Part shown: positions 1-15,076 of the stretch, in pieces
Position numbering within the stretch: the first letter of the stretch is position 1
Layout of the letters: each line of letters begins with the position of its first letter
Assembly: GCA_031275285.1 (NCBI GenBank)
Contig: JAISOY010000001.1
Coordinates: forward strand, 71,435-135,434
Length of the DNA: 64,000 nucleotides
From: Bacteroidales bacterium
GTDB lineage: Bacteria > Bacteroidota > Bacteroidia > Bacteroidales > UBA4181
Direction of reading: 5' to 3'
Notes under the pieces: model-generated
Databases searched by the model: none
What the model was told of the DNA's origin: nothing
Seen by the model: the letters and a program-made list of their open reading frames with translations, nothing else
Program-made: the position numbers and the translations under genes

Positions 1-2593
1 CTACACCATCACTAATCAAAGCATCTTTTATCATTTCCTGCACCTTGGCGTTCATCTGCGCCGTATCGGGTGCATCGCCTTTGGTGAGTTTGAAAACTAT
101 GGAACGAACAGCCAAATAGAAATGTGTATAATCCCGCTCTTCCTGTGTGAGTTGTTCGCTGCCTGTGCAAATATCGTAAGCCGCTTTCAGACGCTTTACC
201 AAATCCATAAAGCGGGTTTCAAATTCTTTGGTGCATTGTACATATTCGGCGGCTCTGTTCAGGCAATTCAGCTGCTCCAATGTGCTGCCCGAAAAATAAT
301 CCGAACCGTCAAATTTATGAAACAGTTTCGCCAACAAATCCAAATGGTCTTTTACCACCACAAGTGACTGGGCAATGTCTTCGAAATTATCTTTGTCGCC
401 TTTGTTGTAATGAGCCAAAGCAAGATTCATCTGCTTTTTGATTCCGATATAATCGACTACCAAACCTTTATTTTTACCTTCAAACTTTCGATTTACGCGC
501 GAAATAGTCTGTATCAGATTGTGTTGCTGTATCGGCTTATCAATATAAATGGTGTCGAGAAACGGCACGTCGAATCCTGTGAGCCACATATCAACCACAA
601 TGGCAACCTTGAAATTCGACTTTTCATTTTTGAATTGTCGGTCGAGTTCCTTGCGGTATTCCTTTGTGCCAAGTAAATCGTACAGCTCTTTATCATCATC
701 TTTACTGCGAGTCATAACAAGTTTTATACGCTCCATCGGTTTCAACTCACGTTTATCTTTATCAGTAAGCTCAACGCTATTATCCGCAAATCGGCTTTCT
801 CCCCATTCGGGACGAAGAGTCAGCACTTTTTTATAAAACTCGTAAGCAATAGTGCGATTGCTGCACACAAACATGGCTTTGCCTTTTACCGAAGAGCCTT
901 CGGATATGCGGTTTTCGTAGTGTTTTACAAAATCTTCCGCCAGAGCTTTTAATCGGTCGGGATCACCGAGAATGGCGTTTAGTCGGGCTGATTCCTGTTT
1001 GCTTTTCTCTATCTGATATTCGTTCGCCCCTTCTTCGGCAACGTCGTTGTAGTATTGTTCTATTTTTTGCAGTTCGCTGTTGTTCAAAACCACTTTTGCG
1101 GCTCGTCCTTCGTACACAATGCGAACGGTAATTTCATCGCGAACCGATTCGGTCATGGTATAAGCATCCACCACTTTGCCGAACACATCGAGTGTCGCAT
1201 CTATCGGCGTACCTGTAAAGCCAACATAAACCGCATTCGGCAACGAATCATGCAGGTACTTGGCAAAACCAAATGTTTTGGAAACGCCTTTTTCTGTTAC
1301 TTTTATCTTTTGGTCGAGATTGGTTTGGCTACGGTGAGCTTCGTCCGAAATACAAATTACATTTGGTCGGTCGGTCAGCAGTTTAGTGTCTTCGGTAAAT
1401 TTGTGAATGGTGGTCAAAAACACGCCGCCACTTTCTCGTCCTTGTAATAACTCTCGCAAATGTTCGCGACTCTCAACACTAATCACATTGTTGTCGCCGA
1501 TATATTGCTTGGCATTGGTAAACTGTCCTGCCAGTTGGTCGTCTAAATCGGTTCGGTCGGTAATAAGCACAATGGTTGGACTTCCGAAATACTCGCTTTT
1601 CATCAGCAAGCGAGTAAGGAAAAGCATGGTATAACTTTTTCCGCAACCTGTCGCTCCGAAATATGTTCCGCCTTTGCCATTACCAAACGGTTTTTGTGCT
1701 TGTTTTATATTGTCGTACAAGGCACGAGCCGCGTAATATTGCGGATAGCGACAAACTATTTTCTCATTCTTCTTCGACGAGTCGGGAATGTAAACAAAGT
1801 TTCGCAGAATATCCCGCAACCTGTTTTTTTGAAACATACCCTGAATCAAGGTGTACATGGAATCTATTCCATCCATATCTTTACTCATTCCTGCAATGCG
1901 TCGCCATGCATAGAAAAAATCGTAGGGAGCGAAAAACGAACCCGCTTTGTTGTTTATGCCGTCGCTGATTACGCAGAAAGCATTGTATTTGAATAATTCG
2001 GGAATGTCGCGTTCGTAGCGAACGGTAAGTTGAGTGTAAGCATCGTGAATGGTGGCATCTTCGCGAATGGCGCTTTTGAACTCGAACACCACCAAAGGCA
2101 GTCCGTTGATGTATAAAATCCCGTCGGGAATGCGTTTTTCCGAACCTTGAATTTCCAATTGAGTTACAAAACGGTAGATATTCGCATCCGTTTTGTATTC
2201 GGCTTGCGGTTCAGCCACAATAGAAATTAAATCTTCGGGCATAAAAGTCTGGTTTTCCAGCCCCGAATAGTCAACCAACTGAATATAAATGTCTTTTTTG
2301 TTATGATCTTCACGTTTGAGGATAAATCCATCGGACAGCATTTTCATAAAACGCTTGTTGGTTTCGTACAGATCGGAAGCGGGAAGCGATTTCAACTCCA
2401 ATAGAATAGATTTGATTTCCGTATCGGTAATGCCATGATTGGCATAACGTTTTTTCAGGAAGTTATGCAAATCGTCTTCTATCAGCACTTCATCGGGCTG
2501 ACGAGCGAGCGTATTGCCCAAACAATGCGGATAGCCCTCCTGTGCCAAGAGTTCTGCAAATGCGTGTTCGAGTTTGGATTCGGTGAATTTCAT
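1..2593 (-). CDS. hsdR: Type I restriction enzyme R subunit (first ~864 codons; C-terminus runs off the left window edge)
   Basis: Absent from the ORF track because there is no stop inside the window. The reverse frame is open from ATG (2593) to position 2. My own translation gives MKFTESKLEHAFAELLAQEGY... at the N-terminus. Walker A GATGCGKS (1634-1657) and DEAH (1334-1345) lie in the same frame. It starts 7 nt after the preceding operon gene. Confidence 0.9.
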   Translation of the reverse strand, partial: MKFTESKLEHAFAELLAQEGYPHCLGNTLARQPDEVLIEDDLHNFLKKRYANHGITDTEIKSILLELKSLPASDLYETNKRFMKMLSDGFILKREDHNKKDIYIQLVDYSGLENQTFMPEDLISIVAEPQAEYKTDANIYRFVTQLEIQGSEKRIPDGILYINGLPLVVFEFKSAIREDATIHDAYTQLTVRYERDIPELFKYNAFCVISDGINNKAGSFFAPYDFFYAWRRIAGMSKDMDGIDSMYTLIQGMFQKNRLRDILRNFVYIPDSSKKNEKIVCRYPQYYAARALYDNIKQAQKPFGNGKGGTYFGATGCGKSYTMLFLTRLLMKSEYFGSPTIVLITDRTDLDDQLAGQFTNAKQYIGDNNVISVESREHLRELLQGRESGGVFLTTIHKFTEDTKLLTDRPNVICISDEAHRSQTNLDQKIKVTEKGVSKTFGFAKYLHDSLPNAVYVGFTGTPIDATLDVFGKVVDAYTMTESVRDEITVRIVYEGRAAKVVLNNSELQKIEQYYNDVAEEGANEYQIEKSKQESARLNAILGDPDRLKALAEDFVKHYENRISEGSSVKGKAMFVCSNRTIAYEFYKKVLTLRPEWGESRFADNSVELTDKDKRELKPMERIKLVMTRSKDDDKELYDLLGTKEYRKELDRQFKNEKSNFKVAIVVDMWLTGFDVPFLDTIYIDKPIQQHNLIQTISRVNRKFEGKNKGLVVDYIGIKKQMNLALAHYNKGDKDNFEDIAQSLVVVKDHLDLLAKLFHKFDGSDYFSGSTLEQLNCLNRAAEYVQCTKEFETRFMDLVKRLKAAYDICTGSEQLTQEERDYTHFYLAVRSIVFKLTKGDAPDTAQMNAKVQEMIKDALISDGV

Positions 2594-2600
2594 GATAATA

Positions 2601-3164
2601 TTACTTTCTTAACCAATCTTTTAAAGGAATAATATTGTTGTTGGGATATTTTACATAATAACCACGAGCAACAAAATTTCCATTGTTATATTTTGTAGTT
2701 CCATCTCTATACACTATGTAGGGGTAGATCTGTAAATACTCTGCACCAGAGAAACTTGCATTATCTTTTTCTACAGGAAATAATGCTATTTTTTCAATAT
2801 ATTTTGCAGCATCACCTAAACCTAACTCCCAATTACACCATTTGGAGTTAATAGCCCCTTCTGAAGCTAAAAGAATGAATTTGTCATTCTCTTTTATTTT
2901 TTGCTTTATTCTTCTTGCTGTTTCACCACTAGTTGTTTTTGGCATACCTTCATCTAACCAATCGACATAAACATCAATTCCTTCTTTTTTTAAGAAGGAT
3001 ATTGCACCATCTAGAACCTCTAGTTCATCATGCTTATGTGATAGAAAAATAGTCGTTTTATTTGACTTCGATTCGTTTCGAATCTGTTTCAAACTCTCAG
3101 TAGCAGAAAAAAACCTTGTGGTATTTCTATATCTCTTTAATTGTGATTCCGTAATAAAACTCAT
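2601..3164 (-). CDS. TIR-domain protein, 187 aa (TIR_2-like)
   Basis: Motifs TIFLSHKHDE ... IDVYVDWLD ... FILLASEGAINSKWCNWELG match the prokaryotic TIR pattern: beta-A FLSH, then the W-x-x-x-E putative catalytic Glu. AT-rich. 6-7 nt gaps to both neighbours. Confidence 0.8.
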   Translation of the reverse strand: MSFITESQLKRYRNTTRFFSATESLKQIRNESKSNKTTIFLSHKHDELEVLDGAISFLKKEGIDVYVDWLDEGMPKTTSGETARRIKQKIKENDKFILLASEGAINSKWCNWELGLGDAAKYIEKIALFPVEKDNASFSGAEYLQIYPYIVYRDGTTKYNNGNFVARGYYVKYPNNNIIPLKDWLRK

Positions 3165-3170
3165 AACTAA

Positions 3171-3779
3171 TTATCGTTGTTTTGTCAAGTCAAATTTTGA
3201 TGTATTCTCGCTCTTATCAAATGCATTTTCTATATAGTAAGAGGGATTAGCCAAAAAATCATTTTCATCAACCAATGTTATATAAGACCCATTCATAAAA
3301 TCATATGTATTACATTCATGACAATGTTTTAGAGCAGGTGTTGAATTATATCTATTTTTATAAATTATAGGATAAAGGAATTCTTGCTTGTAACTGACTG
3401 TTGGACTTCCATGAATATTTGAACTGTGTATTTTTAACCAATCTGCAGAACCATTCACATTCATAATTACACCAACAACACCATTAGTATATGATTTCCT
3501 GTCTTTTCTAGATATTTCTTTTAGACAATATTCTATTTCCCAGTCTATCCATTTACTTTTGACCATACTGGGAGAAATAATAACAATTGCAACAGACGTG
3601 TTGTACATCATGTCTTTTAGATTGTTTTTTATATTATCAGTTGATGTATCTGTTAAGTCTGGAGAATCAGATGTTTCTCCTTGATAATACTGAGCATCAT
3701 TTCCTAAAGCCCTGATGATTTTATCTCGTAAATTTTGAGCTTCGCTATACTTGTATGATATAAAAGTTTTTCTAGCCAT
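3171..3779 (-). CDS. ThsB-like TIR protein (DUF1863-type), 202 aa
   Basis: N-terminus MARKTFISYKYSEAQNLRDKII and VAIVIISPSMVKSKWIDWEIEY are typical of the DUF1863/ThsB-like TIR family. The W-x-x-W-E Glu is retained. Confidence 0.8.
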   Translation of the reverse strand: MARKTFISYKYSEAQNLRDKIIRALGNDAQYYQGETSDSPDLTDTSTDNIKNNLKDMMYNTSVAIVIISPSMVKSKWIDWEIEYCLKEISRKDRKSYTNGVVGVIMNVNGSADWLKIHSSNIHGSPTVSYKQEFLYPIIYKNRYNSTPALKHCHECNTYDFMNGSYITLVDENDFLANPSYYIENAFDKSENTSKFDLTKQR

Positions 3780-3791
3780 GATATCGTCCTT

Positions 3792-4253
3792 TTAATATTG
3801 ATTTCTTATTTTTATTGCCCTTCCCACAAGTTCTGCAATATTCTCCTTTATATCATCATAAACATATTTACTTGTGGAATATGTCGATTCAAAAATAGGT
3901 ACGTGACTTGCCAACGGATTTTTTCCTTTAGAAGACTGATTTCCTAATACATCTTCCAACTTGTGTATGTAAATCCCACAAACCGCTTTTCCTAATTCCC
4001 AAGCTCTATTAATTTCATAATTTACCCATTTTCGTTCACTCGTTTTTTCACCAATCAAAACAACCAAACAAGATTTGTCTTTCAAATTGTCATCAATCCA
4101 TGTCTTGATTGTTGAATCACTTTTACTCTTAACATCTTCCCATTTGTTTCCATTGACAGGTTTATCTCCTTCAACAGTTCCTATGTTGCGAACTTGACCC
4201 GCTCGCCAGTTATCATCATCAAAATGAAAACTATAAAAAACTTTTCTTGCCAT
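3792..4253 (-). CDS. ThsB-like TIR protein (DUF1863-type), 153 aa
   Basis: MARKVFYSFHFDDDNWRAGQVRN ... CLVVLIGEKTSERKWVNYEINRA ... GIYIHKL ... SSKGKNP parallels, from memory, the Bacillus cereus ThsB layout (KRVFFSFHY...VRN; VLIG..RRWVRYEI; GIHI; SKGPNP). Confidence 0.85.
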   Translation of the reverse strand: MARKVFYSFHFDDDNWRAGQVRNIGTVEGDKPVNGNKWEDVKSKSDSTIKTWIDDNLKDKSCLVVLIGEKTSERKWVNYEINRAWELGKAVCGIYIHKLEDVLGNQSSKGKNPLASHVPIFESTYSTSKYVYDDIKENIAELVGRAIKIRNQY

Positions 4254-4258
4254 AATTA

Positions 4259-4855
4259 TTATATTTTATCAATTAAAAATTTCTGAAACAAAGACATGTA
4301 TCCGTAATCCTTTAAGAATCGTTCATTTTTCAACTCTTCTGGAAACTGATTGTCATATACAAGTTTAGTTGCCGCTCCTGTGCTTGCAATTGGTAGTATA
4401 AGAGCATCAGGGTGATATTTAATAAACATATTGTATTCGACTTCTATACCATCCATTCCTCCAATAAAAATAGCAGCTGAAAATTTATTCTCCGAAAACA
4501 TTCTATTTCGCATGTGCTGAATGCTAGAGTGAACATCTCCGACATTCTCTGTAAAAACTATATTTTCAAATTTGTTATTATCAGATGGAAATTTATCCTT
4601 AAAAAATAGAGACTGGTAAAGTAATACATGATTTTGAATGCTTAAATTCAGTTTTTGCATTACATAGTATATCAGTGGTGTAATGGAAGGGTGACCGCCC
4701 CAAACTAATCGATGTTTCGGTAGCACTGTGGTGGCTAAAGCAATTACAGAATCTCTAATTGCAATAATATCCGCCGTTCCTATATATTTAGGATCTCTTT
4801 CAGGCAATGGAGCACTTGCTGAAAGGAAAATGTTTTTCACTTCATTTGTAGCCAT
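4259..4855 (-). CDS. Stand-alone SLOG/LOG-like Rossmannoid protein, 198 aa (resembles the ThsA C-terminal sensor domain without SIR2)
   Basis: Two glycine-rich loops resemble LOG/SLOG motifs: RLVWGGHPSITPLI (like the first GG loop) and AAIFIGGMDGIEVEY (like GGxGTxxE). The protein is only one domain long. Its start overlaps the upstream gene's stop by 19 nt. Confidence 0.6.
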   Translation of the reverse strand: MATNEVKNIFLSASAPLPERDPKYIGTADIIAIRDSVIALATTVLPKHRLVWGGHPSITPLIYYVMQKLNLSIQNHVLLYQSLFFKDKFPSDNNKFENIVFTENVGDVHSSIQHMRNRMFSENKFSAAIFIGGMDGIEVEYNMFIKYHPDALILPIASTGAATKLVYDNQFPEELKNERFLKDYGYMSLFQKFLIDKI

Positions 4856-6027
4856 GTTTCAAAGTCTTGTTTTTTTAATGTTTTTATATCTTTCTTGAAA
4901 TTGTCGTTCAACCAATCCAAATGATTTAGCCATTTATCTCGAATTCGCAAATCATCATATATCAAGCGAATAGAAACCTCATCATATCCCAATAATTCCC
5001 TCTTGATTTCCGCCGATTGGCAATTAGTGGATTGTGGAATCCCGATAGTCGGAATATAAATTACACGACTACCATTTGGCAAGTCTTCTGTTAAAATTTT
5101 CTCAGGTTGAACAGTTACAATTCTACCATTTTTATCTGCAATATTTCTAAATTCGGTTATAAGATTATCTTGTCTTGCTGCTAAATTTCGAGCTCTTACA
5201 GACTCAACCTCAGATATTATTTTGTCAACAATGGTTACTGCTAATTTTGATTTATCCTTATCAGAATAGTCGCTGTCTACAAAATCATCTGCAACCAATT
5301 GTAATGGATAGCTTAAATGTGAGGACGGATCAATATCTTTTATCTTATGGTTTGGCCAAACTAATTGAACTACTCCAATTTGCTTGGCTGCAGCTTCTGC
5401 AAATTCTTCTTTACACCAATGACTTTCTAAAAAGCCTGGGGTGTTAAGTAGGACAACTACATCACAATCAGTCATTCTATGCCATAATTCATCTTGAAAT
5501 GGTTCTCCTTTTTCAATAGAGTGAGTGTCCAAGAAAACGTCAAAATTATGAGACTCCAATGCCTCAAATAGTTGAATTGCAATAGGTGTAGATTCTGTTC
5601 TTCTGTAACTTATAAATACTTTTCGTGTACTTCTTAACAATTCAAATGATTGCAGCACGATATTGGCAATTCTGTTTAATTCAAGTTCTTTATATTGAAT
5701 TCCATTTTGGTTTTCTAACTTTTTAGGAATTTCAGCTCCAAATGCTCCCTCATTAAAATATATAGGCAGAATCATAGTACCATCTTTGATAAGTTTCTCG
5801 ATAATATCTAAGTCCTTGAAATCGCCACCTTCATCTCCAAAATATATTGCAAAAGCGGGTTGATTTCCTTTGTATTCACGCTCCAAATCTTTTGGTTCTA
5901 TGATTTTTATAAAATTTTCAGGTAATCCAAGGTGTGCAAGATCTTTATTGATTTGACTCAATATATCTTGCTTAATTGGAACGTCTGAACCTAATAAAAT
6001 TAATTGGTATTTATACTTCATGTCCAT
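4837..6027 (-). CDS. Multidomain TIR protein, 396 aa (unknown N-domain ~1-135, central TIR ~136-275, unknown C-domain)
   Basis: Central block RKVFISYRRTESTPIAIQLFEALESHNFDVFLDTHSIEKGEPFQDELWHRMTDCDVVVLLNTPGFLESHWCKEEFAEA is a canonical TIR_2 signature (FISY, D..I..G, WC..E). I do not recognise the flanking ~130 and ~120 aa. It starts 1 nt after the hsdS stop. Confidence 0.8.
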   Translation of the reverse strand: MDMKYKYQLILLGSDVPIKQDILSQINKDLAHLGLPENFIKIIEPKDLEREYKGNQPAFAIYFGDEGGDFKDLDIIEKLIKDGTMILPIYFNEGAFGAEIPKKLENQNGIQYKELELNRIANIVLQSFELLRSTRKVFISYRRTESTPIAIQLFEALESHNFDVFLDTHSIEKGEPFQDELWHRMTDCDVVVLLNTPGFLESHWCKEEFAEAAAKQIGVVQLVWPNHKIKDIDPSSHLSYPLQLVADDFVDSDYSDKDKSKLAVTIVDKIISEVESVRARNLAARQDNLITEFRNIADKNGRIVTVQPEKILTEDLPNGSRVIYIPTIGIPQSTNCQSAEIKRELLGYDEVSIRLIYDDLRIRDKWLNHLDWLNDNFKKDIKTLKKQDFETWLQMK

Positions 6028-6028
6028 T

Positions 6029-7258
6029 TTAATTTTCTATTGTTGCCATTTTCGAAAGAAGAAGTGTTTTCAATCCTATCAACTTATGTCGCTCTTCTAA
6101 TGAAGAAGCTTGTAGTTCATTAATGGAGGAAATAGTCTTTTTAAATATGTTAACTATTCTATCATTTGGGATTATCATAGGCATAGACTCTACATTATAC
6201 ATTGGTAATTTCGCTTGAACTCCACCAACCATTCTTGTTTCTATATCCTTTTGTCCAACAGGTGAGTTTAGATAATAGTATAATAAATCAGGGCACAACT
6301 CTTTCAGATTAGTTAATTTGAAGCAATTTTCTGTCAAATTAGCATTATTAAGGGATTTATCAATCATCGAAACGAGTCCGATTGTCCCAACAATTGAAAT
6401 AATAACATCATCGGTAGATACAATATATTTTGATATTGCTTTTTGAGTATTGTTATCAACATATTCGAAATCGCTAGATAACACAATATATTTATCTTTA
6501 CTCATATCTGCAACCTTAATATAAGGTCTGCCTTCCCTTTTATTATTTAAACTGGCTTCCTTTGGAAGTCGTTTACCTCCTTTTATCTCACAAATGTTTT
6601 TTAATTTCTCCACTCTCCATCCCCTTGGAATCTCGCCCAACTCGCTTTCCAGCATTTCGCCGCCTGAACTTTTATAAGGCTTTCCTTCTTCGTTGGGAAA
6701 TTCAAAATCTATAAACCATTGCTTGTAAATAGCCTGTGCAGTTTCTTCGAGTTTTTGTATCAGTTGGTTGTTTAGGTCAATGCGGTGTTGTACGGCATTG
6801 TATTCGGCTACTATTTCGCGTTGCTTTTCGGGAGAGGGAATGGGGAGTTCTGTGTTGCACATTTCATCCCAATCAAATATTTCTCTTGCACTTCCGTGAC
6901 TTTTGAAACGAGCATATCGGTCAAATTCAGGGCGACGAAACCACATCATCAGATATTCGGGAAGAAGTTTTTCTCTATCAAGCACTTCAAAACTGGTGTA
7001 GGCTTGTGAAATTATCGCTTCGTCGTACTCGTTCAACAAAGCGATTGAGATTTTATCTCCATTTCGAGAAGTAACAGGTCCATAAGCAAACTGCCCACGT
7101 TTCATAATCTTGTAAGTGGACATATCAGTTCCTACGGTATTTGCAATTGAGGGCATCATCGCTTTTTGAATGCTAACACCCAATAGCTTTTCGACCTTTA
7201 ATTCTGTGTTTCGGATATTAACTTCGCGAATATAATCGCCCAATCGCTTATAGTTCAT
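6029..7258 (-). CDS. hsdS: Type I R-M specificity subunit
   Basis: 409 aa in a two-TRD layout, with the conserved central coiled region ...EKQREIVAEYNAVQHRIDLNNQLIQKLEETAQAIYKQWFIDFEFP... It overlaps hsdM by 11 nt. The distal TRD half (about 6029-6600) is visibly more AT-rich. Confidence 0.9.
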   Translation of the reverse strand: MNYKRLGDYIREVNIRNTELKVEKLLGVSIQKAMMPSIANTVGTDMSTYKIMKRGQFAYGPVTSRNGDKISIALLNEYDEAIISQAYTSFEVLDREKLLPEYLMMWFRRPEFDRYARFKSHGSAREIFDWDEMCNTELPIPSPEKQREIVAEYNAVQHRIDLNNQLIQKLEETAQAIYKQWFIDFEFPNEEGKPYKSSGGEMLESELGEIPRGWRVEKLKNICEIKGGKRLPKEASLNNKREGRPYIKVADMSKDKYIVLSSDFEYVDNNTQKAISKYIVSTDDVIISIVGTIGLVSMIDKSLNNANLTENCFKLTNLKELCPDLLYYYLNSPVGQKDIETRMVGGVQAKLPMYNVESMPMIIPNDRIVNIFKKTISSINELQASSLEERHKLIGLKTLLLSKMATIEN

Positions 7259-8822
7259 AGCCTAAACCTTTAAATACGTTGAGCAATTCTTTTTTCGACT
7301 CTTCCTCGGATTGCAACAATTTCTTGAACTCGGATTGTAGAGTTTTCATTTTTTCGTCGAAGTCGATATTTTCATCTCGATTCTTGAACGCAATATATTT
7401 ACTCGGCACTAAGGCAAAATCTCTGGTCTCTACTTCTTCACGCGAAGCGGAATAACAATATTCTTCTTGGTTGAAAGCCTCCGAAACGTTTTCTAATACT
7501 GAAGTTTGCCAATCGTGATAGGTTGTGGCAACTTGACGAATGTCATCAATAGAAAATTGAGTAAATTTCTTTTCAAATGGTTCGCCCATTTGGCGTAAAT
7601 CCATAAAGAGGATTTCGCCCTTTCGGTGTCGATAATTGCGTTCTTCACTACCAACTTGTGTTGTTCGAACTGTTTTATTTCGGTTCAATATCCAAAGCGT
7701 AACGCTAATATCGGTGGTGTAAAACATATTTCGAGGCAAAACCAAAATCGCCTCCACCAAATCATTTTCAATTAGTTTTCGACGAATTTTATACTCTTCG
7801 CCTCCGCCGCTCAAAGCACCATTGGCAAGGATAAAGCCCGCAACGCCATCTTCGGAAAGTTTGCTTGCCATATTGAGAATCCAACCGTAATTGGCATTGC
7901 TTTTGGGCGGCACATCGTAGCCACGCCAACGCGGGTCGTCAATGAGTTCGTCTTCGGCACGCCAGTCTTTTTGATTGAAAGGCGGATTTGCCATAATGTA
8001 ATCAGCTTTCAAGTCTTTGTGCTGATCGTCGGAAAACGTATTGGCGGCTTTTGCTCCCAAGTTGGCGGAAATACCACGAATGGCAAGGTTCATTTTTGCC
8101 AGTTTGTAGGTGGTGTTGGTGTATTCCTGTCCGTAAATGGAAACCTCGCGTTTGTTTCCGTGGTGGCTTTCGATAAACTTAATGGACTGCACAAACATAC
8201 CACCCGAACCGCAAGCAGGGTCATAAATGATTCCTTTGTAAGGCTCAATCATTTCGGCAATCAGGTTTACAATGCTTTTTGGGGTGTAGAATTCGCCTTT
8301 CCCTTTTCCTTCCGCCAAAGCGAATTTTGAAAGAAAGTATTCGTACACACGTCCTACAATGTCTTGTTCTTTATCTTTCAGGGTGTTTATCTCGCTTATT
8401 TCATCAATTAATGAAGCCAATTTTGACGACTCCAAACCTAAACGAGAGAAGTAGTTATCGGGCAATGCTCCTTTCAGACTTTTGTTGTCTTTTTCAATAG
8501 TATGGAGGGCGGTATCGATAATGAGAGCCAAATCGTCTTGTTTGGCTTTTTCCTTGATATAGTTCCATCGCGATATTTCTTCAAGAAAAAACACATTGCT
8601 CATATTGTAAAATTCGGGCATTTCCACGTATTTCTCTTTTCCGTCGGCAATGAGCATGGATCGGTGTTCCTCAAACTTGTCGCTGACAAATTTCAGGAAA
8701 ATCAGTCCCAGTACCACGTGTTTGTATTCCGAAGGCTCAACGCTTCCACGCAGTTTATTCGCCGACTCCCACAGACTTACCTCAATGGGCTTTTCTTGTT
8801 TTTCTTTCGCTTGTTTAGCCAT
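7248..8822 (-). CDS. hsdM: Type I R-M N6-adenine DNA methyltransferase subunit
   Basis: 524 aa. It has the HsdM N-terminal pattern LWESANKLRG..EYKHVVLGLIFLKF, the SAM motif DPACGSGGMF and the catalytic motif ANPPFN. Confidence 0.95.
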   Translation of the reverse strand: MAKQAKEKQEKPIEVSLWESANKLRGSVEPSEYKHVVLGLIFLKFVSDKFEEHRSMLIADGKEKYVEMPEFYNMSNVFFLEEISRWNYIKEKAKQDDLALIIDTALHTIEKDNKSLKGALPDNYFSRLGLESSKLASLIDEISEINTLKDKEQDIVGRVYEYFLSKFALAEGKGKGEFYTPKSIVNLIAEMIEPYKGIIYDPACGSGGMFVQSIKFIESHHGNKREVSIYGQEYTNTTYKLAKMNLAIRGISANLGAKAANTFSDDQHKDLKADYIMANPPFNQKDWRAEDELIDDPRWRGYDVPPKSNANYGWILNMASKLSEDGVAGFILANGALSGGGEEYKIRRKLIENDLVEAILVLPRNMFYTTDISVTLWILNRNKTVRTTQVGSEERNYRHRKGEILFMDLRQMGEPFEKKFTQFSIDDIRQVATTYHDWQTSVLENVSEAFNQEEYCYSASREEVETRDFALVPSKYIAFKNRDENIDFDEKMKTLQSEFKKLLQSEEESKKELLNVFKGLGYEL

Positions 8823-8826
8823 GTAT

Positions 8827-9036
8827 CTATTTGCTACTATTTAATAAATCTTTCACATCTACATTCAACAACTCAGCTATTTTTGCAAATGTCTCAATGG
8901 GTGGCTGCATGGTATTTGAGCACCATCGAGATACGGTTGCAGGATCTCTTCCAAGTTGTTCCGCCAGCCATTTGCCGGTTTTTTGCTTTTCAACTAACAC
9001 AATTTTAATCCGATTAATAGGTTTCATCGCTCTCAT
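8827..9036 (-). CDS. XRE/Cro-type HTH regulator, 69 aa (possible controller of the R-M operon)
   Basis: KWLAEQLGRDPATVSRWCSNTMQPPIETFAKIAELLNVDVKDLL is a typical HTH_3 pattern. It ends 4 nt upstream of the hsdM start. Confidence 0.8.
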   Translation of the reverse strand: MRAMKPINRIKIVLVEKQKTGKWLAEQLGRDPATVSRWCSNTMQPPIETFAKIAELLNVDVKDLLNSSK

Positions 9037-9052
9037 CTGTTGATTTTAAACG

Positions 9053-9060
9053 CAAATATA
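9053..9060 (-). promoter_or_regulatory. Candidate Bacteroides-type -7 promoter box (TATATTTG) for the HTH-hsdMS-TIR/SLOG-hsdR operon
   Basis: The reverse complement of caaatata is TATATTTG, which matches TAnnTTTG. It lies 17 nt upstream of the HTH ATG (9036). Confidence 0.4.
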
Positions 9061-9144: not shown

Positions 9145-10419
9145 TTACCTCTTCTGCCCTCTATTTTTCTGCTGAACGACAGGCTGCTTACGTTTTTGTT
9201 CTTCCTTTGGAGGTTCTGGCAAACGTGGGTCGCTCCACGACTCCTTATATTCAGCATCTGCTTTATTCTCTTTCCACAAGTAAGGATTCGCATAGCTTCC
9301 CATACCCCACCATTTTACTTTGGCTTTGGTGATATATCCGTTCTCGATCAGAACCTTATCCCGGATACGCATTTCGTACTTGCCGTATTTGACAAATTCA
9401 TCAGGATTGTCATAGCTGAGAAGCACTCGTTTCTTTTCATCATTGAGGAAAGCATAAGCCGAAAATTGTGTTTTCCCATCTTTAGCTGTCATGTTTTCAA
9501 GGAAGATATGACCTCCACTCATTAGTGTTTCCTGTTGCTTGTCACTCAATTCCACACCTTTGACAATAATATTCCGTTTGACCGCTTGCTCTCTTTCTTC
9601 GGCTTCCTGTTTCGCTTTTTGCTCTACTTGCTGCCGTAGATATACTTCTTCTATTCGCTTGTTTTCTTCCAAGAGATTCTTCTGAAACTCCTTTTTCAGA
9701 TTCCCGAAGCTGTATTTTCTATCAATTTCGGAGCCTTTGAAAGCTACATTTTCGTATCGAAACGATACACCTTGAATCTCATTTGAGCCTCGCTTAAACT
9801 TATAATCTATCTCAACTCCATGTTTTTCAAGAGCAAATCTCAGGTCAGCAGGATTCTTACAATCGGGCAAAACCGACTTAATGGCATCGTGGATATAGTA
9901 CTTAATCTTATCAGGATTCTTCAATTTTTCCCGCTTGACTTTCTCTTTATCCTTGCCATAAGTGAGCTGATATTTGTCTTTCAGCATCTTGCAAACCTTG
10001 ATATTCCGCTTGTAATCGTGGTTCACGGAGATAAGTTTAAGGTCGTTGTTGATTCGGTTATAGACAATATGCAAGTGTGGATTCTCCGTGTTATGGTGGC
10101 GAACAATAATATATTGGGTGTTACCAATACCCATTTCCTGCATATATTCTTTGGCTAATTGCACCATAAAATCATCGGTCATTCTGTGTTTATCTTCTGG
10201 CGAAAAAGCAATCGGGATATGTCCGACAGGTTGTTTGACTTCCTTTCTGCCGGAGCGTTGCATGGCAAAGCTCCTAATAATATCTTCTTTGGTTGATGCC
10301 CATACACCTTCCGCTTCGAGCATGGTTGCTCCATCGTGCATCACATACGAAACACAACCCTTGAATGATTTCCCTTTGATATTCTTAGCGATCATGGAAC
10401 AGGCTTTTGATTTTGTCAA
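9145..10419 (-). CDS. Relaxase/mobilization nuclease (MobA/VirD2-type relaxase domain, Bacteroides MobB-like)
   Basis: 424 aa. The N-terminus has GKSFKGCVSYVMHD and the histidine triad region HHNTENPHLHIVYNRI. Downstream there is a Glu/Lys-rich coiled region. Confidence 0.85.
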   Translation of the reverse strand: MTKSKACSMIAKNIKGKSFKGCVSYVMHDGATMLEAEGVWASTKEDIIRSFAMQRSGRKEVKQPVGHIPIAFSPEDKHRMTDDFMVQLAKEYMQEMGIGNTQYIIVRHHNTENPHLHIVYNRINNDLKLISVNHDYKRNIKVCKMLKDKYQLTYGKDKEKVKREKLKNPDKIKYYIHDAIKSVLPDCKNPADLRFALEKHGVEIDYKFKRGSNEIQGVSFRYENVAFKGSEIDRKYSFGNLKKEFQKNLLEENKRIEEVYLRQQVEQKAKQEAEEREQAVKRNIIVKGVELSDKQQETLMSGGHIFLENMTAKDGKTQFSAYAFLNDEKKRVLLSYDNPDEFVKYGKYEMRIRDKVLIENGYITKAKVKWWGMGSYANPYLWKENKADAEYKESWSDPRLPEPPKEEQKRKQPVVQQKNRGQKR

Positions 10420-10759
10420 TAATTTCGATAAGAACTTCTGTTACCATATATAATCCTCTTTGATGAGCAAGTTTTGTAATCTGATTCAGATTGTTTGCCA
10501 TACCTGAAAGTTTACGCATCAAGTCAAGTTCCTCTATCGTAAAACGAGATTTAACCCTCCCTTTGAGAGCCATTTCCCGTGCATATTGTGTTGCTTTCAT
10601 TCCCAGTTTTTCGGCTTTCTCTTTCAATAAAGCATAGTCATCTTCGGTCAATTTCAGATTAATTGACCGGGCTAACTTGGTCTTTTCTTTTAAAGGGCGA
10701 CCGAGTTTTGCTTTATGTTCTTCCTTGTTTTCGATAATATTTTGATTGAAAATATTCAT
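10385..10759 (-). CDS. MobC-family relaxosome accessory protein
   Basis: 124 aa. It has an RHH-like segment NLKLTEDDYALLKEKAEKLGMKATQYAREMAL and the motif LSGMANNLNQITKLAH, typical of the bacterial mobilisation protein MobC. It overlaps the relaxase start. Confidence 0.8.
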   Translation of the reverse strand: MNIFNQNIIENKEEHKAKLGRPLKEKTKLARSINLKLTEDDYALLKEKAEKLGMKATQYAREMALKGRVKSRFTIEELDLMRKLSGMANNLNQITKLAHQRGLYMVTEVLIEIIDKIKSLFHDR

Positions 10760-10777
10760 TTAAGCCGAAGCGAAAGC

Positions 10778-10886
10778 GACCATCGGGAGATTGAGCGGGG
10801 ACGTTCACACAACAGACTGCCGGAGTGACCATCGGGAGCGAAGTAGTCAGTTGTGAAGTGACCTTACCGGTTGCAACCATCGGGCG
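10778..10886. repeat. Three spaced copies of ACCATCGGG(A/C)G in a GC-rich leader; candidate oriT or relaxosome-binding region of IME-1
   Basis: GACCATCGGGAG occurs at 10778-10789 and 10827-10838, and AACCATCGGGCG at 10875-10886 (spacing 49 and 48 nt). An imperfect inverted repeat (cacaacagactg / cagttgtg) brackets the middle copy. The region lies immediately upstream of mobC. Confidence 0.35.
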
Positions 10887-11062
10887 CATTAGGTCTGGTC
10901 ACTGCCCCGCAGGGCAAGGTATGCACAGGAGGAACAAGAAAGAGCCGAAGGCGAATTTCGGGTTACCCGTGCGATTACCTTGCTACCGAACATTTCATGT
11001 TCCGTTAGAGAAGTAAGCCATAAATGATACAGGCTTACTCTTCAACTGGTAGAAGCTAAACA

Positions 11063-11584
11063 TTAAAGCTTCTTCCATCCCTCGACATCTTCCCTGTAGA
11101 TGTCCAGATGGTGGCGGGCAAGATTCTCAATAAAGCCCGACACGCTTCGCCCTCTGCCGCCCAAGCGGTGGACTATCTCATCAATCCGATCCCGAACTTC
11201 ACGGCTGATAAAGACAGGTTTGCGGTCTTCAAGCTTGGGAACAGTTAGAAATGTTTGCCGATACTCTTCAAGCGATTCTTTGCGTTGCTTGGTGGTACTG
11301 CGTTTGGATACTACCGTTGGGATAGGCGGTTGTTCCACTTCGGTTGATACTCCCGCTTCGGTTTGCAGACTATCCATAGTCTCGTCCGCTTCGTCCTGTA
11401 GGATAGTTTCATCGGTGCTGATACCGTTACTGGTAACTTCTCTTTCAACCGCCTTTTGAAATACTTCCTCCAATTCCTTATTGGTTGGTTTTACAAATCC
11501 ACCTTTCTCTTCTCCCGAAGTTGGCAACCAACCGTCGGGAATCTGTACTTTGCCTTTCCGGCTTTCTGTTTGCTTACTACTCAT
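11063..11584 (-). CDS. DUF3408-family protein (Bacteroides conjugative/mobilizable element protein)
   Basis: The C-terminal block DRKPVFISREVRDRIDEIVHRLGGRGRSVSGFIENLARHHLDIYREDVEGW matches my memory of DUF3408. The N-terminal half is acidic and low-complexity. Confidence 0.7.
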   Translation of the reverse strand: MSSKQTESRKGKVQIPDGWLPTSGEEKGGFVKPTNKELEEVFQKAVEREVTSNGISTDETILQDEADETMDSLQTEAGVSTEVEQPPIPTVVSKRSTTKQRKESLEEYRQTFLTVPKLEDRKPVFISREVRDRIDEIVHRLGGRGRSVSGFIENLARHHLDIYREDVEGWKKL

Positions 11585-12178
11585 AGCATACTGTGTTTAG
11601 AAAATTATTACTATGGCTTCCCATGTTATGGGCAACCAATTATCGACAACAAATAAACGACTATTAATCAGCAGGCTGAACAGAATTGGTTTATATGAAA
11701 TAATCCGCAATAACTTTCTACTTTGCTTACCCTGCAATTGGTTCAGACTGCACCGATTTTCCGATTTGATTGTGGTGTACCAATAATGCACTCTGATTTT
11801 TGAAAGTGGATTATATGAATTATAGAAACTTTGAAGCCACTCCCAGCCACAAGTACGCATATGGTTTCGAGCCATTGGGATATGAATTTTTCTGTTTTTC
11901 TTCGTATTGGACGAACGCAATTTTACAGGACTTCGAAGCCACTCTATGCCAAATCGGTGCCACATGCTGCCACCTGATTTAGAATCCATTGAATAGCGGA
12001 CAATTCTGCTTTACTTCGTTGGCGAAACGGTGAAGACAGCACCGCCGGAAGAGGTGATACCGTAGAAAAATACTGTATCCGGTTACATACGAAACGGAAT
12101 TCTTTCAGGTGCTAAACAGACACTGTAATTTTGAGCAAGAACAAAGAAAATTTGAATTATAAATTAAATAACAAGACT

Positions 12179-12490
12179 ATGCAAATCATTAATGTTGATG
12201 CGGAAACATTCGAGGCGATGCTCTCGAAGTTCGAAGATTTTGCCAGCCGGATAGAGAAACTCTCCCGCTTGCATGGAGATAAGGATATGAAAGAGTGGTT
12301 GGACAATCAGGATGTATGTCAACTTCTGAATATCTCGAAACGGACACTTCAAACGCTTCGGGATAACGGAACACTGGCATATACCCAAATCAGCCATAAG
12401 ACCTATTACAGACCGGAAGACGTTCTGCAGGTTGTTCCGGTAGTGGAGGAAAAACGAAAACAGGCAAAGTATAATGGGAAACAATTATGA
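12179..12490 (+). CDS. HTH_17 / excisionase-family DNA-binding protein
   Basis: LDNQDVCQLLNISKRTLQTLRDNGTLAYTQISHKTYYRPEDV. The ORF track starts at TTG 12131, but the ATG at 12179 (MQIINVDAETFEAM...) is the more likely start. Confidence 0.7.
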   Translation: MQIINVDAETFEAMLSKFEDFASRIEKLSRLHGDKDMKEWLDNQDVCQLLNISKRTLQTLRDNGTLAYTQISHKTYYRPEDVLQVVPVVEEKRKQAKYNGKQL

Positions 12491-12786
12491 GACCGGAAGA
12501 GGAATATCAATCAGGCTTCAATCACCTGTTTTCTTGGCAAGGCGGTTGGGAAAGTATAAATGGTAATCCCGATGTATATATTTTTCGGGATTATGACGGT
12601 AGTTACTATCTGCTTACATATAGCTATGACAGAGATTACGGACGTGGCAACTTCTCTTGTCATAGGATAGAGTCAGACGAAAACAGTTGCTATATCTGCA
12701 TGGGGACAAAGCATTATCGCTTGACGGAAGAGAAATATCCATACGGATTATGTATTGGGGATTGGGGCAGCTATATGAAAAATTAG
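12487..12786 (+). CDS. Hypothetical protein, 99 aa (possibly a DUF3876-like element protein)
   Basis: ATGA start/stop overlap with the upstream gene. The sequence is aromatic/Gly-rich. The family assignment is from memory only. Confidence 0.45.
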   Translation: MRPEEEYQSGFNHLFSWQGGWESINGNPDVYIFRDYDGSYYLLTYSYDRDYGRGNFSCHRIESDENSCYICMGTKHYRLTEEKYPYGLCIGDWGSYMKN

Positions 12787-12833
12787 AATGAAACGAAAAT
12801 CAAGTTTAACATAAAAAAGAAAGGAGTAACATT

Positions 12834-13133
12834 ATGAGTAACCAGTTAATTACACGGGAGAACAATGAGAGGGTCAAGGGATTTTTTCTTACGCTCGAAC
12901 GGATATCTGTCGCAGTAGAGAAATTATTTGCCTCTCGCAAACCAACCTTTGGCGGTGATAGTTTTTATTCGGACAAAGAATTGTCGAAGAAATTGAAAAT
13001 AAGTCAGAGGAGTTTACAGGACTACAGAAATGAAGGACGAATTCCTTATATCAAGCTGGGAGGCAAAATCCTCTATCGCAGTTCGGATATTGAGAAATTG
13101 TTAGAAGATGGGTATCGGGACAAGCTCAGGTAG
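12834..13133 (+). CDS. HTH_17 / excisionase-family DNA-binding protein
   Basis: YSDKELSKKLKISQRSLQDYRNEGRIPYIKLGGKILYRSSDIEKLL is the MerR-like HTH_17 pattern. Confidence 0.7.
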   Translation: MSNQLITRENNERVKGFFLTLERISVAVEKLFASRKPTFGGDSFYSDKELSKKLKISQRSLQDYRNEGRIPYIKLGGKILYRSSDIEKLLEDGYRDKLR

Positions 13134-13340
13134 TCGCTCCATATAAGGGAAGTACGAATATTTTTCCCTTTTTCGACTGATAAACACCTCTTAACGGAAG
13201 GAGAATAAATAAGACAAGGCTATTTTGGTAAATACTCTTTTTCGTCCGGCGAAAAAGGAAGATTTGGCAAAATACCCGTAGGATTTAGCCTTGTCGTTTT
13301 ATTTCCTTCTTTTTTCTTTGTGTTCAGATGAGAAAGGACA

Positions 13341-13378
13341 ATGAAAAACGGCAGGCTTTAATGTAGATAGCCTGCCGT
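13341..13378 (-). terminator. Rho-independent terminator-like hairpin after the int/RhuM-like genes
   Basis: 10-bp stem acggcaggct (13348-13357) / agcctgccgt (13369-13378), followed on the minus strand by TTTT. Confidence 0.5.
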
Positions 13379-13398
13379 CCTCGTTTGAAAAAATCTGT

Positions 13399-13788
13399 TC
13401 AATTCAATATCGGATTTTGAATGTTCCTTATCAGTATTTCGGGGATTTCCGGTTTCGACAACTTTCTTGTCAGATACTTCCGAAAAGCTTCTGCATTCCT
13501 CGATTGAATACGAAACGAAAGAGCGATAGTCATTTCCAGATTATATTGTTCTACGAAATCGCCATTCTTATAATGATAAGTCTGGCAGACTTTGCTTTCA
13601 TCCAATACTCCGGTTTTCAGGATGGCGCGAATGTTCGCATTTATTTTGCTAATAAAGCATTGGAACAAATCGGCAAGCTGATGCTGTGTCATCCAGATTT
13701 CAGTAAACTGAGGGATATGCACAAAACCATTCTCTATTTTAATTATGCTGTTTTCCATATATTTATTTGCTTTTGTCATTATTATCAT
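13399..13788 (-). CDS. RhuM-like / DNA-binding protein, 129 aa
   Basis: IWMTQHQLADLFQCFISKINANIRAILKTGVLDESKV...YNLEMTIALSFRIQSRNAEAFRKYL follows the RhuM-family pattern (W.tq.qiA.LF......I..Hi.nI...gEL....YNLD.IiavGYRv.S..A..FR.W). It overlaps the integrase stop by 26 nt. Confidence 0.5.
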   Translation of the reverse strand: MIIMTKANKYMENSIIKIENGFVHIPQFTEIWMTQHQLADLFQCFISKINANIRAILKTGVLDESKVCQTYHYKNGDFVEQYNLEMTIALSFRIQSRNAEAFRKYLTRKLSKPEIPEILIRNIQNPILN

Positions 13789-15058
13789 CAGGCAATTTAT
13801 ATTTCTGACCGATGCAGTCGCTTAGTTTTTTCATATCCTTATTGATTTTCTTCCGTGTAAGTTTGGCATAAATCTGGGTCGTGCGGAAACATTTGTTTCC
13901 CATCATCTGACTGACGGTTTCCAACGGAACTCCCTTGGATAGAGTGATTAGGGTCGCAAAATTATGGCGACTTTGATGGTAGGTAATCCGCTTCTCTATG
14001 CCGCATAATTTGGCAACCTTATTCAGATTGACAGTCACACGAGGAAGCGTTACCATATTGAACAACTTGTCTCCTTTTCGTTCCGACTTATACTTCTCCA
14101 TAATTTGTAAAGGAATATCCAGTAATGGAATATCACACCGGACACCGGTTTTCTGCCGATTGATGCGAATCCAAAGGCTGCCATTCTTACCTTTATGAAT
14201 ATTCTCCTCCGATAGATTACACATATCCGCATACGACAAACCAGTAAAAGTGGCGAAAATGAACATATCCCGTGAGTGGCATAAACGTTTGGATGCTACC
14301 GGAACATTCATGAATTTTTCCAATTCTTCCTGTGTCATGTGCCTGCGTTTACGGGGAGGCTGTTCCGGGATATAGGCTGCAAAAGGATTCTTGTGTAATG
14401 TTCCCTGACTAATTGCCCGTCGAATCATCTTGCGAAGAATTATGGTATAGCCGGATACCGTATGGGCGGTAAATCCTTGCTCGATGCGTAGAAAAGAATC
14501 GAACTTTTCGATAAATGACAGTTCCAACTGTCGCAATGGAATATCTTCTACACCGTAATGAACTTGTAAAAAACGCTCTGTCTGCTTATATACAGAGATA
14601 TAGTTACGAAGAGATTCACCGGAACGGGTAACACCAACCTGTTTGGCATATTCCTCATTATGCTCCCTAAAGAGTTCCAACAGGTTTTCTCTTTTTCTCC
14701 CGATACCACTGACTGCATTTTTTACAAGCTCTGCCGTAATATATCCCTGCTCGTCCAGTATCTGCTTATAATACCGGTCAATCCTTTCTTTCAGTTGCCT
14801 AATCTGATGATTTGCTTCGGTGGCATGACGGCTTTTACCTTTCATACAATATGCTTTCGCATCCCACAAGGATGGATCTATATCTATTCCGGCTGAGAAT
14901 TGAGCGATTTCGGTATTGATGGATATTCTTCCCATCAATGGACACATACCGTTTTTCTTTATCTTTTGGCGATTGATATAAAACAAGACTGCGAATGTGC
15001 TATAAGCGGTATTTGCCTGATTGCTCTTATTCTTGTTTCTATTATTGTTGGTCTTCAT
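13763..15058 (-). CDS. Tyrosine site-specific integrase (Bacteroides type, N-terminal arm-binding domain)
   Basis: 431 aa. The C-terminal catalytic region is HQSRHNFATLITLSKGVPLETVSQMMGNKCFRTTQIYAKL (R..H..RH..Y). Confidence 0.9.
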   Translation of the reverse strand: MKTNNNRNKNKSNQANTAYSTFAVLFYINRQKIKKNGMCPLMGRISINTEIAQFSAGIDIDPSLWDAKAYCMKGKSRHATEANHQIRQLKERIDRYYKQILDEQGYITAELVKNAVSGIGRKRENLLELFREHNEEYAKQVGVTRSGESLRNYISVYKQTERFLQVHYGVEDIPLRQLELSFIEKFDSFLRIEQGFTAHTVSGYTIILRKMIRRAISQGTLHKNPFAAYIPEQPPRKRRHMTQEELEKFMNVPVASKRLCHSRDMFIFATFTGLSYADMCNLSEENIHKGKNGSLWIRINRQKTGVRCDIPLLDIPLQIMEKYKSERKGDKLFNMVTLPRVTVNLNKVAKLCGIEKRITYHQSRHNFATLITLSKGVPLETVSQMMGNKCFRTTQIYAKLTRKKINKDMKKLSDCIGQKYKLPDDNNDKSK

Positions 15059-15076
15059 TGTATCCTCCTTTCCCGA

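Follow-up and report, generated by a model that had tools for sequence, protein, structure and literature searches.

A predicted type III Thoeris cassette in the hsdS–hsdR slot of a type I restriction-modification operon from a Bacteroidales bacterium

Could genes for TIR and SLOG proteins that lie within a type I restriction-modification (R-M) operon serve as guards of the restriction enzyme? In the E. coli prr locus, which encodes the EcoprrI hsdMSR, the gene for the anticodon nuclease PrrC lies between hsdS (prrB) and hsdR (prrD); PrrC is kept latent by the EcoprrI complex and fires when the T4 Stp peptide attacks the restriction enzyme. We analyzed a stretch of 64,000 nucleotides (nt) from a Bacteroidales bacterium (contig JAISOY010000001.1, positions 71,435 to 135,434), referred to here as the window, in which five TIR/SLOG genes occupy the same position in a type I operon. 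From its domains and homologues, we identify this cassette as a type III Thoeris system, composed of four predicted ThsB-type TIR proteins and a ThsD-like protein with a SLOG domain only. It is probably an autonomous, second-layer abortive-infection defense that is co-transcribed and co-mobilized with the R-M operon.

The five-gene cassette and its operon

The operon spans positions 1–9036 of the window on the minus strand. It consists of nine consecutive open reading frames (ORFs) in the order HTH-hsdM-hsdS-TIR396-SLOG198-TIR153-TIR202-TIR187-hsdR, where HTH stands for helix-turn-helix and the numbers give the protein lengths in amino acids (aa).

9053–9060, minus strand: Bacteroidetes-type −7 promoter box, TATATTTG, 17 nt before the ATG of the HTH gene
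8827–9036, minus strand: HTH protein, Cro/C1-type, 69 aa (HTH_26, 9e-09; HTH_3, 2e-07)
7248–8822, minus strand: hsdM, type I methyltransferase subunit, 524 aa (N6_Mtase, 1.6e-100; HsdM_N, 1e-21; PADLOC MTase_I, 3e-147)
6029–7258, minus strand: hsdS, specificity subunit, 409 aa (Methylase_S), overlapping hsdM by 11 nt
4837–6027, minus strand: TIR396, predicted ThsB-type TIR protein, 396 aa (PADLOC ThsB PDLC00434, 1e-142, full length)
4259–4855, minus strand: SLOG198, ThsD-like protein with a SLOG domain only, 198 aa (PF18180, SLOG cluster 3, 2.6e-61)
3792–4253, minus strand: TIR153, predicted ThsB-type TIR protein, 153 aa (ThsB_TIR, 2e-26; PADLOC ThsB, 3e-66)
3171–3779, minus strand: TIR202, predicted ThsB-type TIR protein, 202 aa (PADLOC ThsB, 6.5e-80)
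2601–3164, minus strand: TIR187, predicted ThsB-type TIR protein, 187 aa (PADLOC ThsB, 4.8e-76), 7 nt before hsdR
2593 down to 1, minus strand: hsdR, restriction/translocase subunit (HSDR_N, SWI2_SNF2, T1R_D3-like, T1RH-like_C; PADLOC REase_I, E = 0), of which the first 864 codons lie in the window and the rest beyond its edge

The ORF coordinates, Pfam and PADLOC confirm the gene order given in the first-pass annotation of this DNA. Taken in gene order, HTH and hsdM are 4 nt apart, hsdM and hsdS overlap by 11 nt, hsdS and TIR396 are separated by 1 nt, TIR396 and SLOG198 overlap by 19 nt, and the remaining four junctions have gaps of 5, 12, 6 and 7 nt, which agrees with its description of every junction as 12 nt or less or overlapping. 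The outer genes make up a type I R-M system: HsdM is accompanied by an HsdS in which two Methylase_S stretches were matched and by an HsdR in which Pfam recognizes the nuclease, the superfamily 2 (SF2) motor and the C-terminal domain.

Each of the four TIR proteins is recognized by PADLOC ThsB models (E-values from 1e-66 to 1e-142) and by Pfam TIR_2 or ThsB_TIR. The type III Thoeris system of Pseudomonas aeruginosa L0872 is said to go back to van den Berg et al. 2024 in Cell Host Microbe 32:1427. According to the passages of a preprint that cite van den Berg et al. 2024, type III Thoeris combines multiple TIR proteins with a SLOG effector (bioRxiv 10.64898/2025.12.03.692087), and Table S1 of the same preprint, by Yirmiya, tabulates the four TIR domains of the L0872 system. 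We compared the cassette with these four domains by blastp, which covers the TIR side of the L0872 system only. TIR396 matched TIR4 with 44% identity (3e-35), TIR187 matched TIR1 with 42% identity (4e-26), and TIR153 matched TIR2 with 40% identity (4e-23) and TIR3 with 38%. TIR202 was 64% identical to the TIR domain of a type IX Thoeris system (IMG gene 2639430606).

Furthermore, relatives of TIR4 (71% identity) on two proteobacterial metagenome contigs have as neighbors a gene of the PF18180 family and TIR genes of the ThsB type. On an E. coli IncHI plasmid, the order is TIR (275 aa)-TIR (380 aa)-SLOG (189 aa)-TIR (190 aa), with a gap of only 3 nt within the TIR-SLOG pair.

SLOG198 is covered by PF18180 from residue 23 to residue 193, and Pfam finds no other domain in it. 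The best PDB matches of its AlphaFold2 model, which has a predicted local distance difference test score (pLDDT) of 75.7, are the SLOG domains of ThsA (8wc0, probability 0.97; 8btp, probability 0.90), with template modeling (TM) scores of 0.43–0.48. An hhalign comparison of the SLOG alignment with the STALD domain of a ThsA was not significant (probability 0.35%), so that the relationship of SLOG198 to ThsA comes from the fold search and not from profile comparison. Across 24 SLOG homologues, two glycine-rich motifs (WGGHxSITP and GGMxGxxxE) do not vary, which fits ligand binding, and SLOG198 is predicted to be the receptor for a nucleotide signal made by the TIR proteins.

The AlphaFold2 model of TIR396 (pLDDT 80.7) places the TIR core at residues 135–225, preceded by an N-terminal alpha/beta domain and followed by a long helix and a C-terminal alpha/beta domain. 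When the whole chain was searched against the PDB with Foldseek, low-TM matches to multi-Rossmann proteins were obtained, and clear matches were confined to the TIR core. The identification as type III Thoeris was made because of the Pfam and PADLOC protein types, the blastp matches to the L0872 TIR domains, the PF18180 neighbors of the TIR4 relatives and the SLOG fold.

Is the cassette expressed together with hsdMSR? The first-pass annotation had recognized one promoter-like box, upstream of the HTH gene, and TATATTTG is indeed the sole TAnnTTTG match on the minus strand that is intergenic and directly ahead of a gene. Another match lies inside TIR153, 111 nt upstream of the TIR202 start, and the minus-strand total of 6 matches, versus 3.7 ± 1.8 in shuffled sequences, is near chance. 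A combined −33/−7 pattern missed the HTH site, after which the −7 box alone was used, and no good match to a −33 TTTG was found at the canonical spacing from TATATTTG. Scans with generic sigma-70 and terminator models gave matches at chance level, the generic sigma-70 model being unsuited to Bacteroidota promoters, and all minus-strand terminator-like matches in the scan were intragenic, none intergenic. TATATTTG is likely the promoter of the whole operon. The HTH protein, a putative controller of the operon, is 100% identical in the most closely related locus (L001), and homologues with 45–47% identity precede hsdM in four others (L036, L083, L137 and L138). Because the junctions are tight, all genes lie on a single strand, one box is well placed and the scan gave no intergenic terminator, co-expression of the cassette with the type I enzyme, as the earlier annotation had suggested, is plausible.

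Association with restriction operons in related loci

How closely is the cassette tied to type I R-M? A scan for SLOG homologues, with each species represented by one genome, yielded 80 loci with 54–97% identity, nearly all of them from Bacteroidota; the closest is that of Dysgonomonas sp. Marseille-P4361 (L001). In 36 of these 80 loci, a count that includes contigs ending within the operon, the cassette is placed in the hsdS–hsdR slot of a single hsd lineage. The HsdM and HsdR proteins of the embedded loci are mostly 70–80% identical to those of the window (70–95% for HsdM overall), and the order hsdM-hsdS-TIR396-SLOG-TIRs-(other cargo)-hsdR recurs. Chance placement or an annotation artefact is rejected, since the same arrangement is found in 36 species.

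The other 44 loci are not embedded. Forty-three of them have no hsd gene of this lineage in the sequence at hand, and for 34 of these 43 the available sequence extends 5 kb or more to either side; in the remaining one (L063), hsd genes lie nearby yet outside the cassette. The proteobacterial relatives, namely the E. coli IncHI plasmid and the two metagenome contigs, have the arrangement TIR-TIR-SLOG-TIR without R-M. With 36 of 80 loci embedded, the cassette does not show the near-obligate R-M linkage of the PrrC/RloC type.

In essentially all 80 loci, we observed TIR396 and SLOG as neighboring, overlapping genes; the other TIR genes vary in number, family and order. Embedded and free loci have the same TIR families, with full-length TIR396 in both, and no gene specific to either state was found among the 80 loci. 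Similarly, a search of the free loci for an extra conserved gene that R-M might replace found none, the recurrent neighbors being other TIR systems. In 21 embedded loci, a further 0.7–6.8 kb of cargo lies between the last TIR gene and hsdR and includes GmrSD, AbiEi/AbiEii, a Schlafen-AlbA_2 ATPase, RhuM, AAA_14/DUF4143 and a metallophosphatase-STAND protein. In the window and eight other loci, the cassette ends directly at hsdR.

A neighbor-joining (NJ) tree of TIR396 and SLOG shows embedded and free loci interleaved. Fitch parsimony requires 16 changes in the embedded state, versus 24.1 ± 2.2 with shuffled tips; the NJ tree carries no support values, and the figure of 16 switches is therefore approximate. 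A single ancestral fusion followed by vertical inheritance is rejected, as the embedded state is scattered on this tree.

The same question can be asked from the side of the R-M operon. We scanned metagenomes with an HsdM alignment, not selecting for the cassette, and obtained 80 operons with 71–85% HsdM identity, 36 of which have both hsdS and hsdR visible and form the basis of the slot counts. The slot between these genes holds more than 1 kb of cargo in 29 of the 36 sibling operons (median 3 kb), and hsdS and hsdR are directly adjacent in 6. Clustering of the cargo proteins gave 71 groups, 57 of them singletons, and all but two of the cargo ORFs lie on the hsd strand. Same-strand insertion between conserved hsd genes, with cargo that differs among sibling operons, is the pattern of embedded defense cargo, and the hsdS–hsdR slot is a promiscuous, generic cargo site in this hsd lineage.

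What the slot holds is diverse. AAA_13 proteins of 742–795 aa lie in three slots (L094, 6719–9097; L098; L118); the PADLOC PrrC model matches them in their C-terminal part (4.5e-11), they also match the PADLOC candidate PDC-S06, and they look like RloC/PrrC-type anticodon nucleases. The view that the cassette sits in the PrrC slot is thus borne out, because these PrrC-model proteins occupy exactly the same slot in sibling operons. L119 and L131 have complete Gabija systems (GajA and GajB), and L121 has a Gabija-like pair. L099 (12646–15420) holds a complete type I Thoeris system, with a ThsA of 496 aa (SIR2-STALD) and two ThsB proteins; one of the latter is 61% identical to TIR187 and, therefore, one ThsB family serves systems of type I as well as of type III. 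Other cargo includes AbiE, AbiH, GmrSD, YhcG nucleases, RhuM, an Abi-P2-type reverse transcriptase and NTPases of the KAP, YobI-like, NACHT and STAND kinds.

A survey of hsdS–hsdR gaps, which had been proposed as a check on the link between cassette and enzyme, can be read from two sides: 36 of the 80 cassette loci are embedded, and Thoeris is found in at most 2 of the 36 sibling slots (the type I system of L099 and, in L122, a TIR396 fragment at a contig end). A slot that holds many unrelated systems means that position alone is no proof of guarding the restriction enzyme.

The exchange of cargo can be followed in close relatives of the window. In L083, HsdR and HsdM are 95% and 85% identical in amino acid sequence to those of the window, yet none of the cargo is shared: the DNA homology ends at 2596, no more than 3 nt from the start of hsdR, and at 7596, in hsdM, and the genes between are unrelated. 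L001 is homologous throughout except at 6064–6600, which encodes the second target-recognition half of hsdS, and at 3050–3746, which corresponds to TIR202; the counterpart of TIR202 in L001 is an unrelated TIR protein (24% aa identity), and the rest of the operon is 86–94% identical. These comparisons indicate that the segment flanked by hsdM and hsdR is turning over by recombination. In the window, the G+C content falls from ~0.42 to 0.30–0.34 across 2500–6500, that is, over the cassette and the 3′ half of hsdS, and this low-G+C tract, which takes in the swapped target-recognition half (~6064–6600), coincides with the variable segment.

On its upstream side, the operon adjoins a backbone that we identify, from its gene content, as that of an integrative mobilizable element, which carries the R-M operon and belongs to a Dysgonomonas-like genome.

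9145–16312, mostly minus strand: predicted integrative mobilizable element backbone
9145–10419: MobA/VirD2 relaxase gene
10385–10759: MobC/NikA gene
within 9145–16312: DUF3408 gene
12834–13133, plus strand: HTH_17 excisionase-like gene
13763–15058 and 15077–16312: two tyrosine integrase genes

The same backbone lies beside the operon in L001, with 84–97% aa identity. Mobility genes homologous to the relaxase or integrases of the window are found near only a minority of the related loci.

Autonomous defense, guarding and other explanations

How might the cassette work? Transcription would start at the HTH/hsdM promoter and run through the cassette, so that hsdR would be read through it. By analogy with characterized Thoeris types, the TIR proteins would sense phage components and convert nicotinamide adenine dinucleotide (NAD+) to an ADP-ribose-derived signal, and the SLOG protein would bind this signal and bring about growth arrest or cell death. 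Because the TIR396-SLOG pair is invariant and overlapping, it may form a fixed two-subunit core, perhaps equivalent to a ThsA split over two proteins, with a TIR NADase taking the place of SIR2, and the remaining TIR proteins would be exchangeable sensors. The conserved hsdM and hsdR could act as homology arms for the exchange of hsdS target-recognition halves and cargo. The link with R-M would then consist of common expression and common mobility, with restriction acting first and abortive infection second, and would involve no obligate PrrC-style circuit.

Several observations weigh against autonomous defense. SLOG198 contains no recognizable killing domain, which leaves the effector step without an assigned domain. 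The literature citing type III Thoeris, as far as its citing passages go, describes the signaling molecule as uncharacterized, and stand-alone defense by type III Thoeris is taken here from secondary citations. TIR396 directly follows hsdS in every embedded locus, with other cargo distal to the cassette. The distances of cassette and Hsd proteins are positively correlated (Mantel r 0.27–0.49, versus 0.62 within each module), a correlation that is only moderate. Finally, 45% of the cassette loci lie in one hsd lineage, far above random placement, and this could reflect functional coupling. A vehicle effect, that is, recombination between conserved hsd flanks, together with selection for layered defense would account for both the embedding rate and the adjacency to hsdS without physical coupling.

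Could the cassette instead be a guard, as the first-pass annotation had proposed from its placement? TIR396 most plausibly, or some other cassette protein or proteins, would bind HsdMS(R) and be held latent there until phage anti-restriction proteins released them by attacking the enzyme, leading to TIR signaling and abortive infection. Guards of R-M such as PrrC, PARIS, Ronin and EcoR22I are an established concept, the position is that of prrC, and RloC/PrrC-like genes share the slot in sibling operons. The concentration of 36 of the 80 cassettes in one hsd lineage, the invariable first place of TIR396 after hsdS and its two extra flanking domains would also suit such a role.

Nevertheless, we consider a PrrC-like guard unlikely. 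The 44 free loci and all proteobacterial relatives examined have no adjacent R-M, yet they carry the same gene set with full-length TIR396, and no cassette component is confined to the embedded state. The slot also houses many systems with known R-M-independent triggers, and unrelated cargo lies beside near-identical hsdR genes. No sign of Hsd binding came from the whole-chain fold search with TIR396, and the literature cites type III as a separate, published type of Thoeris. A guard function does not follow from placement when the slot takes at least 71 protein clusters, more than half of the cassettes are free and an operon with a 95%-identical HsdR holds other cargo.

A related proposal is that one of the sensors, most plausibly TIR396, watches over the type I enzyme or detects when DNA-mimic anti-restriction proteins inhibit it, and that type III Thoeris was on this account repeatedly recruited, in Bacteroidota, to a single type I R-M lineage, the cassette being a guard of the PrrC kind with an NAD+-derived messenger as its signal. 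We regard this as improbable. If the guard reading of TIR396 were true, it would be the first link between TIR signaling and the surveillance of restriction enzymes, and embedding at ~45% is high enough to make PrrC-like coupling worth direct testing, though the comparative data do not require coupling.

The cassette, or the whole operon of R-M and Thoeris genes, might on the other hand serve mainly to retain the mobilizable element, by an addiction-like or selfish linkage, rather than to defend the host. The operon does ride on an element with relaxase and integrases, and Payne et al. (bioRxiv 10.1101/2024.01.29.577857) propose a selfish linkage benefit for an embedded system. Only a minority of the related loci lie near homologous mobility genes, and Thoeris systems are experimentally validated anti-phage systems, which makes retention as the main function very unlikely; as a contribution, it is compatible with autonomous defense and does not exclude it. 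Least probable of all is the R-M enzyme as effector, whereby signal-bound SLOG would act on the type I enzyme and, for example, unleash HsdR on modified or host DNA: the SLOG protein is just 198 aa and lacks an effector domain, and hsdR is directly downstream in the window and eight other loci, but most cassettes that have this SLOG-only protein are free, and they occur also on plasmids without R-M, 0.7–6.8 kb of other cargo separates cassette and hsdR in 21 embedded loci, and nothing in the data points to such a mechanism.

Relation to known systems

With the type III Thoeris system of L0872, the cassette shares several TIR genes and a predicted SLOG-only effector of the ThsD type, and the relatives of TIR4 adjoin PF18180 genes. 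It differs in the long TIR protein, which in Bacteroidota has 386–411 aa and extra N- and C-terminal domains, whereas the closest TIR4 relatives have 188–221 aa, although a long TIR protein of 380 aa exists on enterobacterial plasmids. It further differs in TIR202, which comes from a family found in type IX Thoeris, and in being nested within a type I R-M operon.

The resemblance to type I Thoeris lies in the shared TIR sensor families, in a receptor with a predicted SLOG fold whose best PDB match is ThsA and in the use of the same hsd slot in L099. On the other hand, the cassette has no SIR2, its SLOG domain belongs to PF18180 and not to PF18185 (STALD), and the PADLOC ThsA match is merely E 0.006 over 44 residues, with no significant sequence similarity in the profile comparison.

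As in the prr locus and with RloC, the space between hsdS and hsdR is taken by a defense gene outside R-M proper, which has the same orientation and is presumably co-transcribed, and RloC/PrrC-like AAA_13 proteins share the slot in sibling operons. The cassette proteins differ in having no ABC-ATPase or anticodon-nuclease domain and give no AAA_13, PrrC or RloC match in Pfam or PADLOC. PrrC was almost exclusively R-M-embedded in the survey of Payne et al. 2024 (bioRxiv 10.1101/2024.01.29.577857), whereas over half of the cassette loci are not embedded.

Defense genes embedded in type I R-M, BREX, DISARM and Hma clusters are a described general phenomenon (bioRxiv 10.1101/2024.01.29.577857), and TgvAB is embedded in the type I R-M system of V. 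cholerae VPI-2 (PMC11411939). The window resembles these cases in that a complete same-strand module lies between the genes of a multi-gene system and in that the cargo is variable and includes GmrSD-like genes. The main text of the Payne et al. survey (bioRxiv 10.1101/2024.01.29.577857) does not mention Thoeris. Type III Thoeris and embedding in type I R-M are thus both known kinds, and what is modestly new is the recurrent embedding, at ~45%, in one Bacteroidota hsd lineage.

If this ordinary reading holds, the window provides a clear Bacteroidota case of defense systems nested in defense systems. A mobile R-M operon would be the carrier, with a slot of fast turnover in which hsdS specificity halves are shuffled together with whole abortive-infection systems, and this role helps explain the spread of poorly studied systems such as type III Thoeris across Bacteroidota classes. 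Operons that differ in one TIR gene, or that have the same hsdR with and without the cassette, are natural material that could serve for studying the SLOG-only effector and the cooperation of R-M and Thoeris.

Some of the related loci have further features. The E. coli plasmid NZ_CP034659.1 (L163, 204904–211578) has an IncHI island with five TIR genes, in which the PF18180-like SLOG gene is annotated merely as "hypothetical protein" and another gene as "CBASS cGAMP-activated phospholipase"; a gene of the TnsD family (Tn7-like transposition) adjoins the island. Within the hsd lineage, a second, smaller slot of 1–3 kb lies between hsdM and hsdS in 17 loci (L085, L093, L100, L102, L110, L111, L114, L115, L117, L121, L139, L144, L146–L149 and L162), with cargo such as Schlafen-AlbA_2/HATPase_c_4, YhcG PD-(D/E)xK nucleases, Fic/DOC, REase-ARP and DUF4062.

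A conserved four-gene module adjoins about 12 of the 44 free cassettes and encodes MazG with MazG_C (~295 aa), HMUDK_hel (~338 aa), a ThsB-like TIR protein (~162 aa) and Nmad2 (~214 aa). The HMUDK_hel member resembles a 5-hydroxymethyldeoxyuridine (5-hmdU) DNA kinase. The module, found in L005 (11204–14259, minus strand) and also in L017, L020, L027, L030, L033, L037, L038, L049, L055 and L072, may be a further TIR-based, nucleotide-centered system. In Chryseobacterium gambrini (L041, 4115–7525), an LRR-Roc-COR-TIR protein of 1136 aa is encoded ~1.3 kb upstream of a free cassette, with one gene of 267 aa between them.

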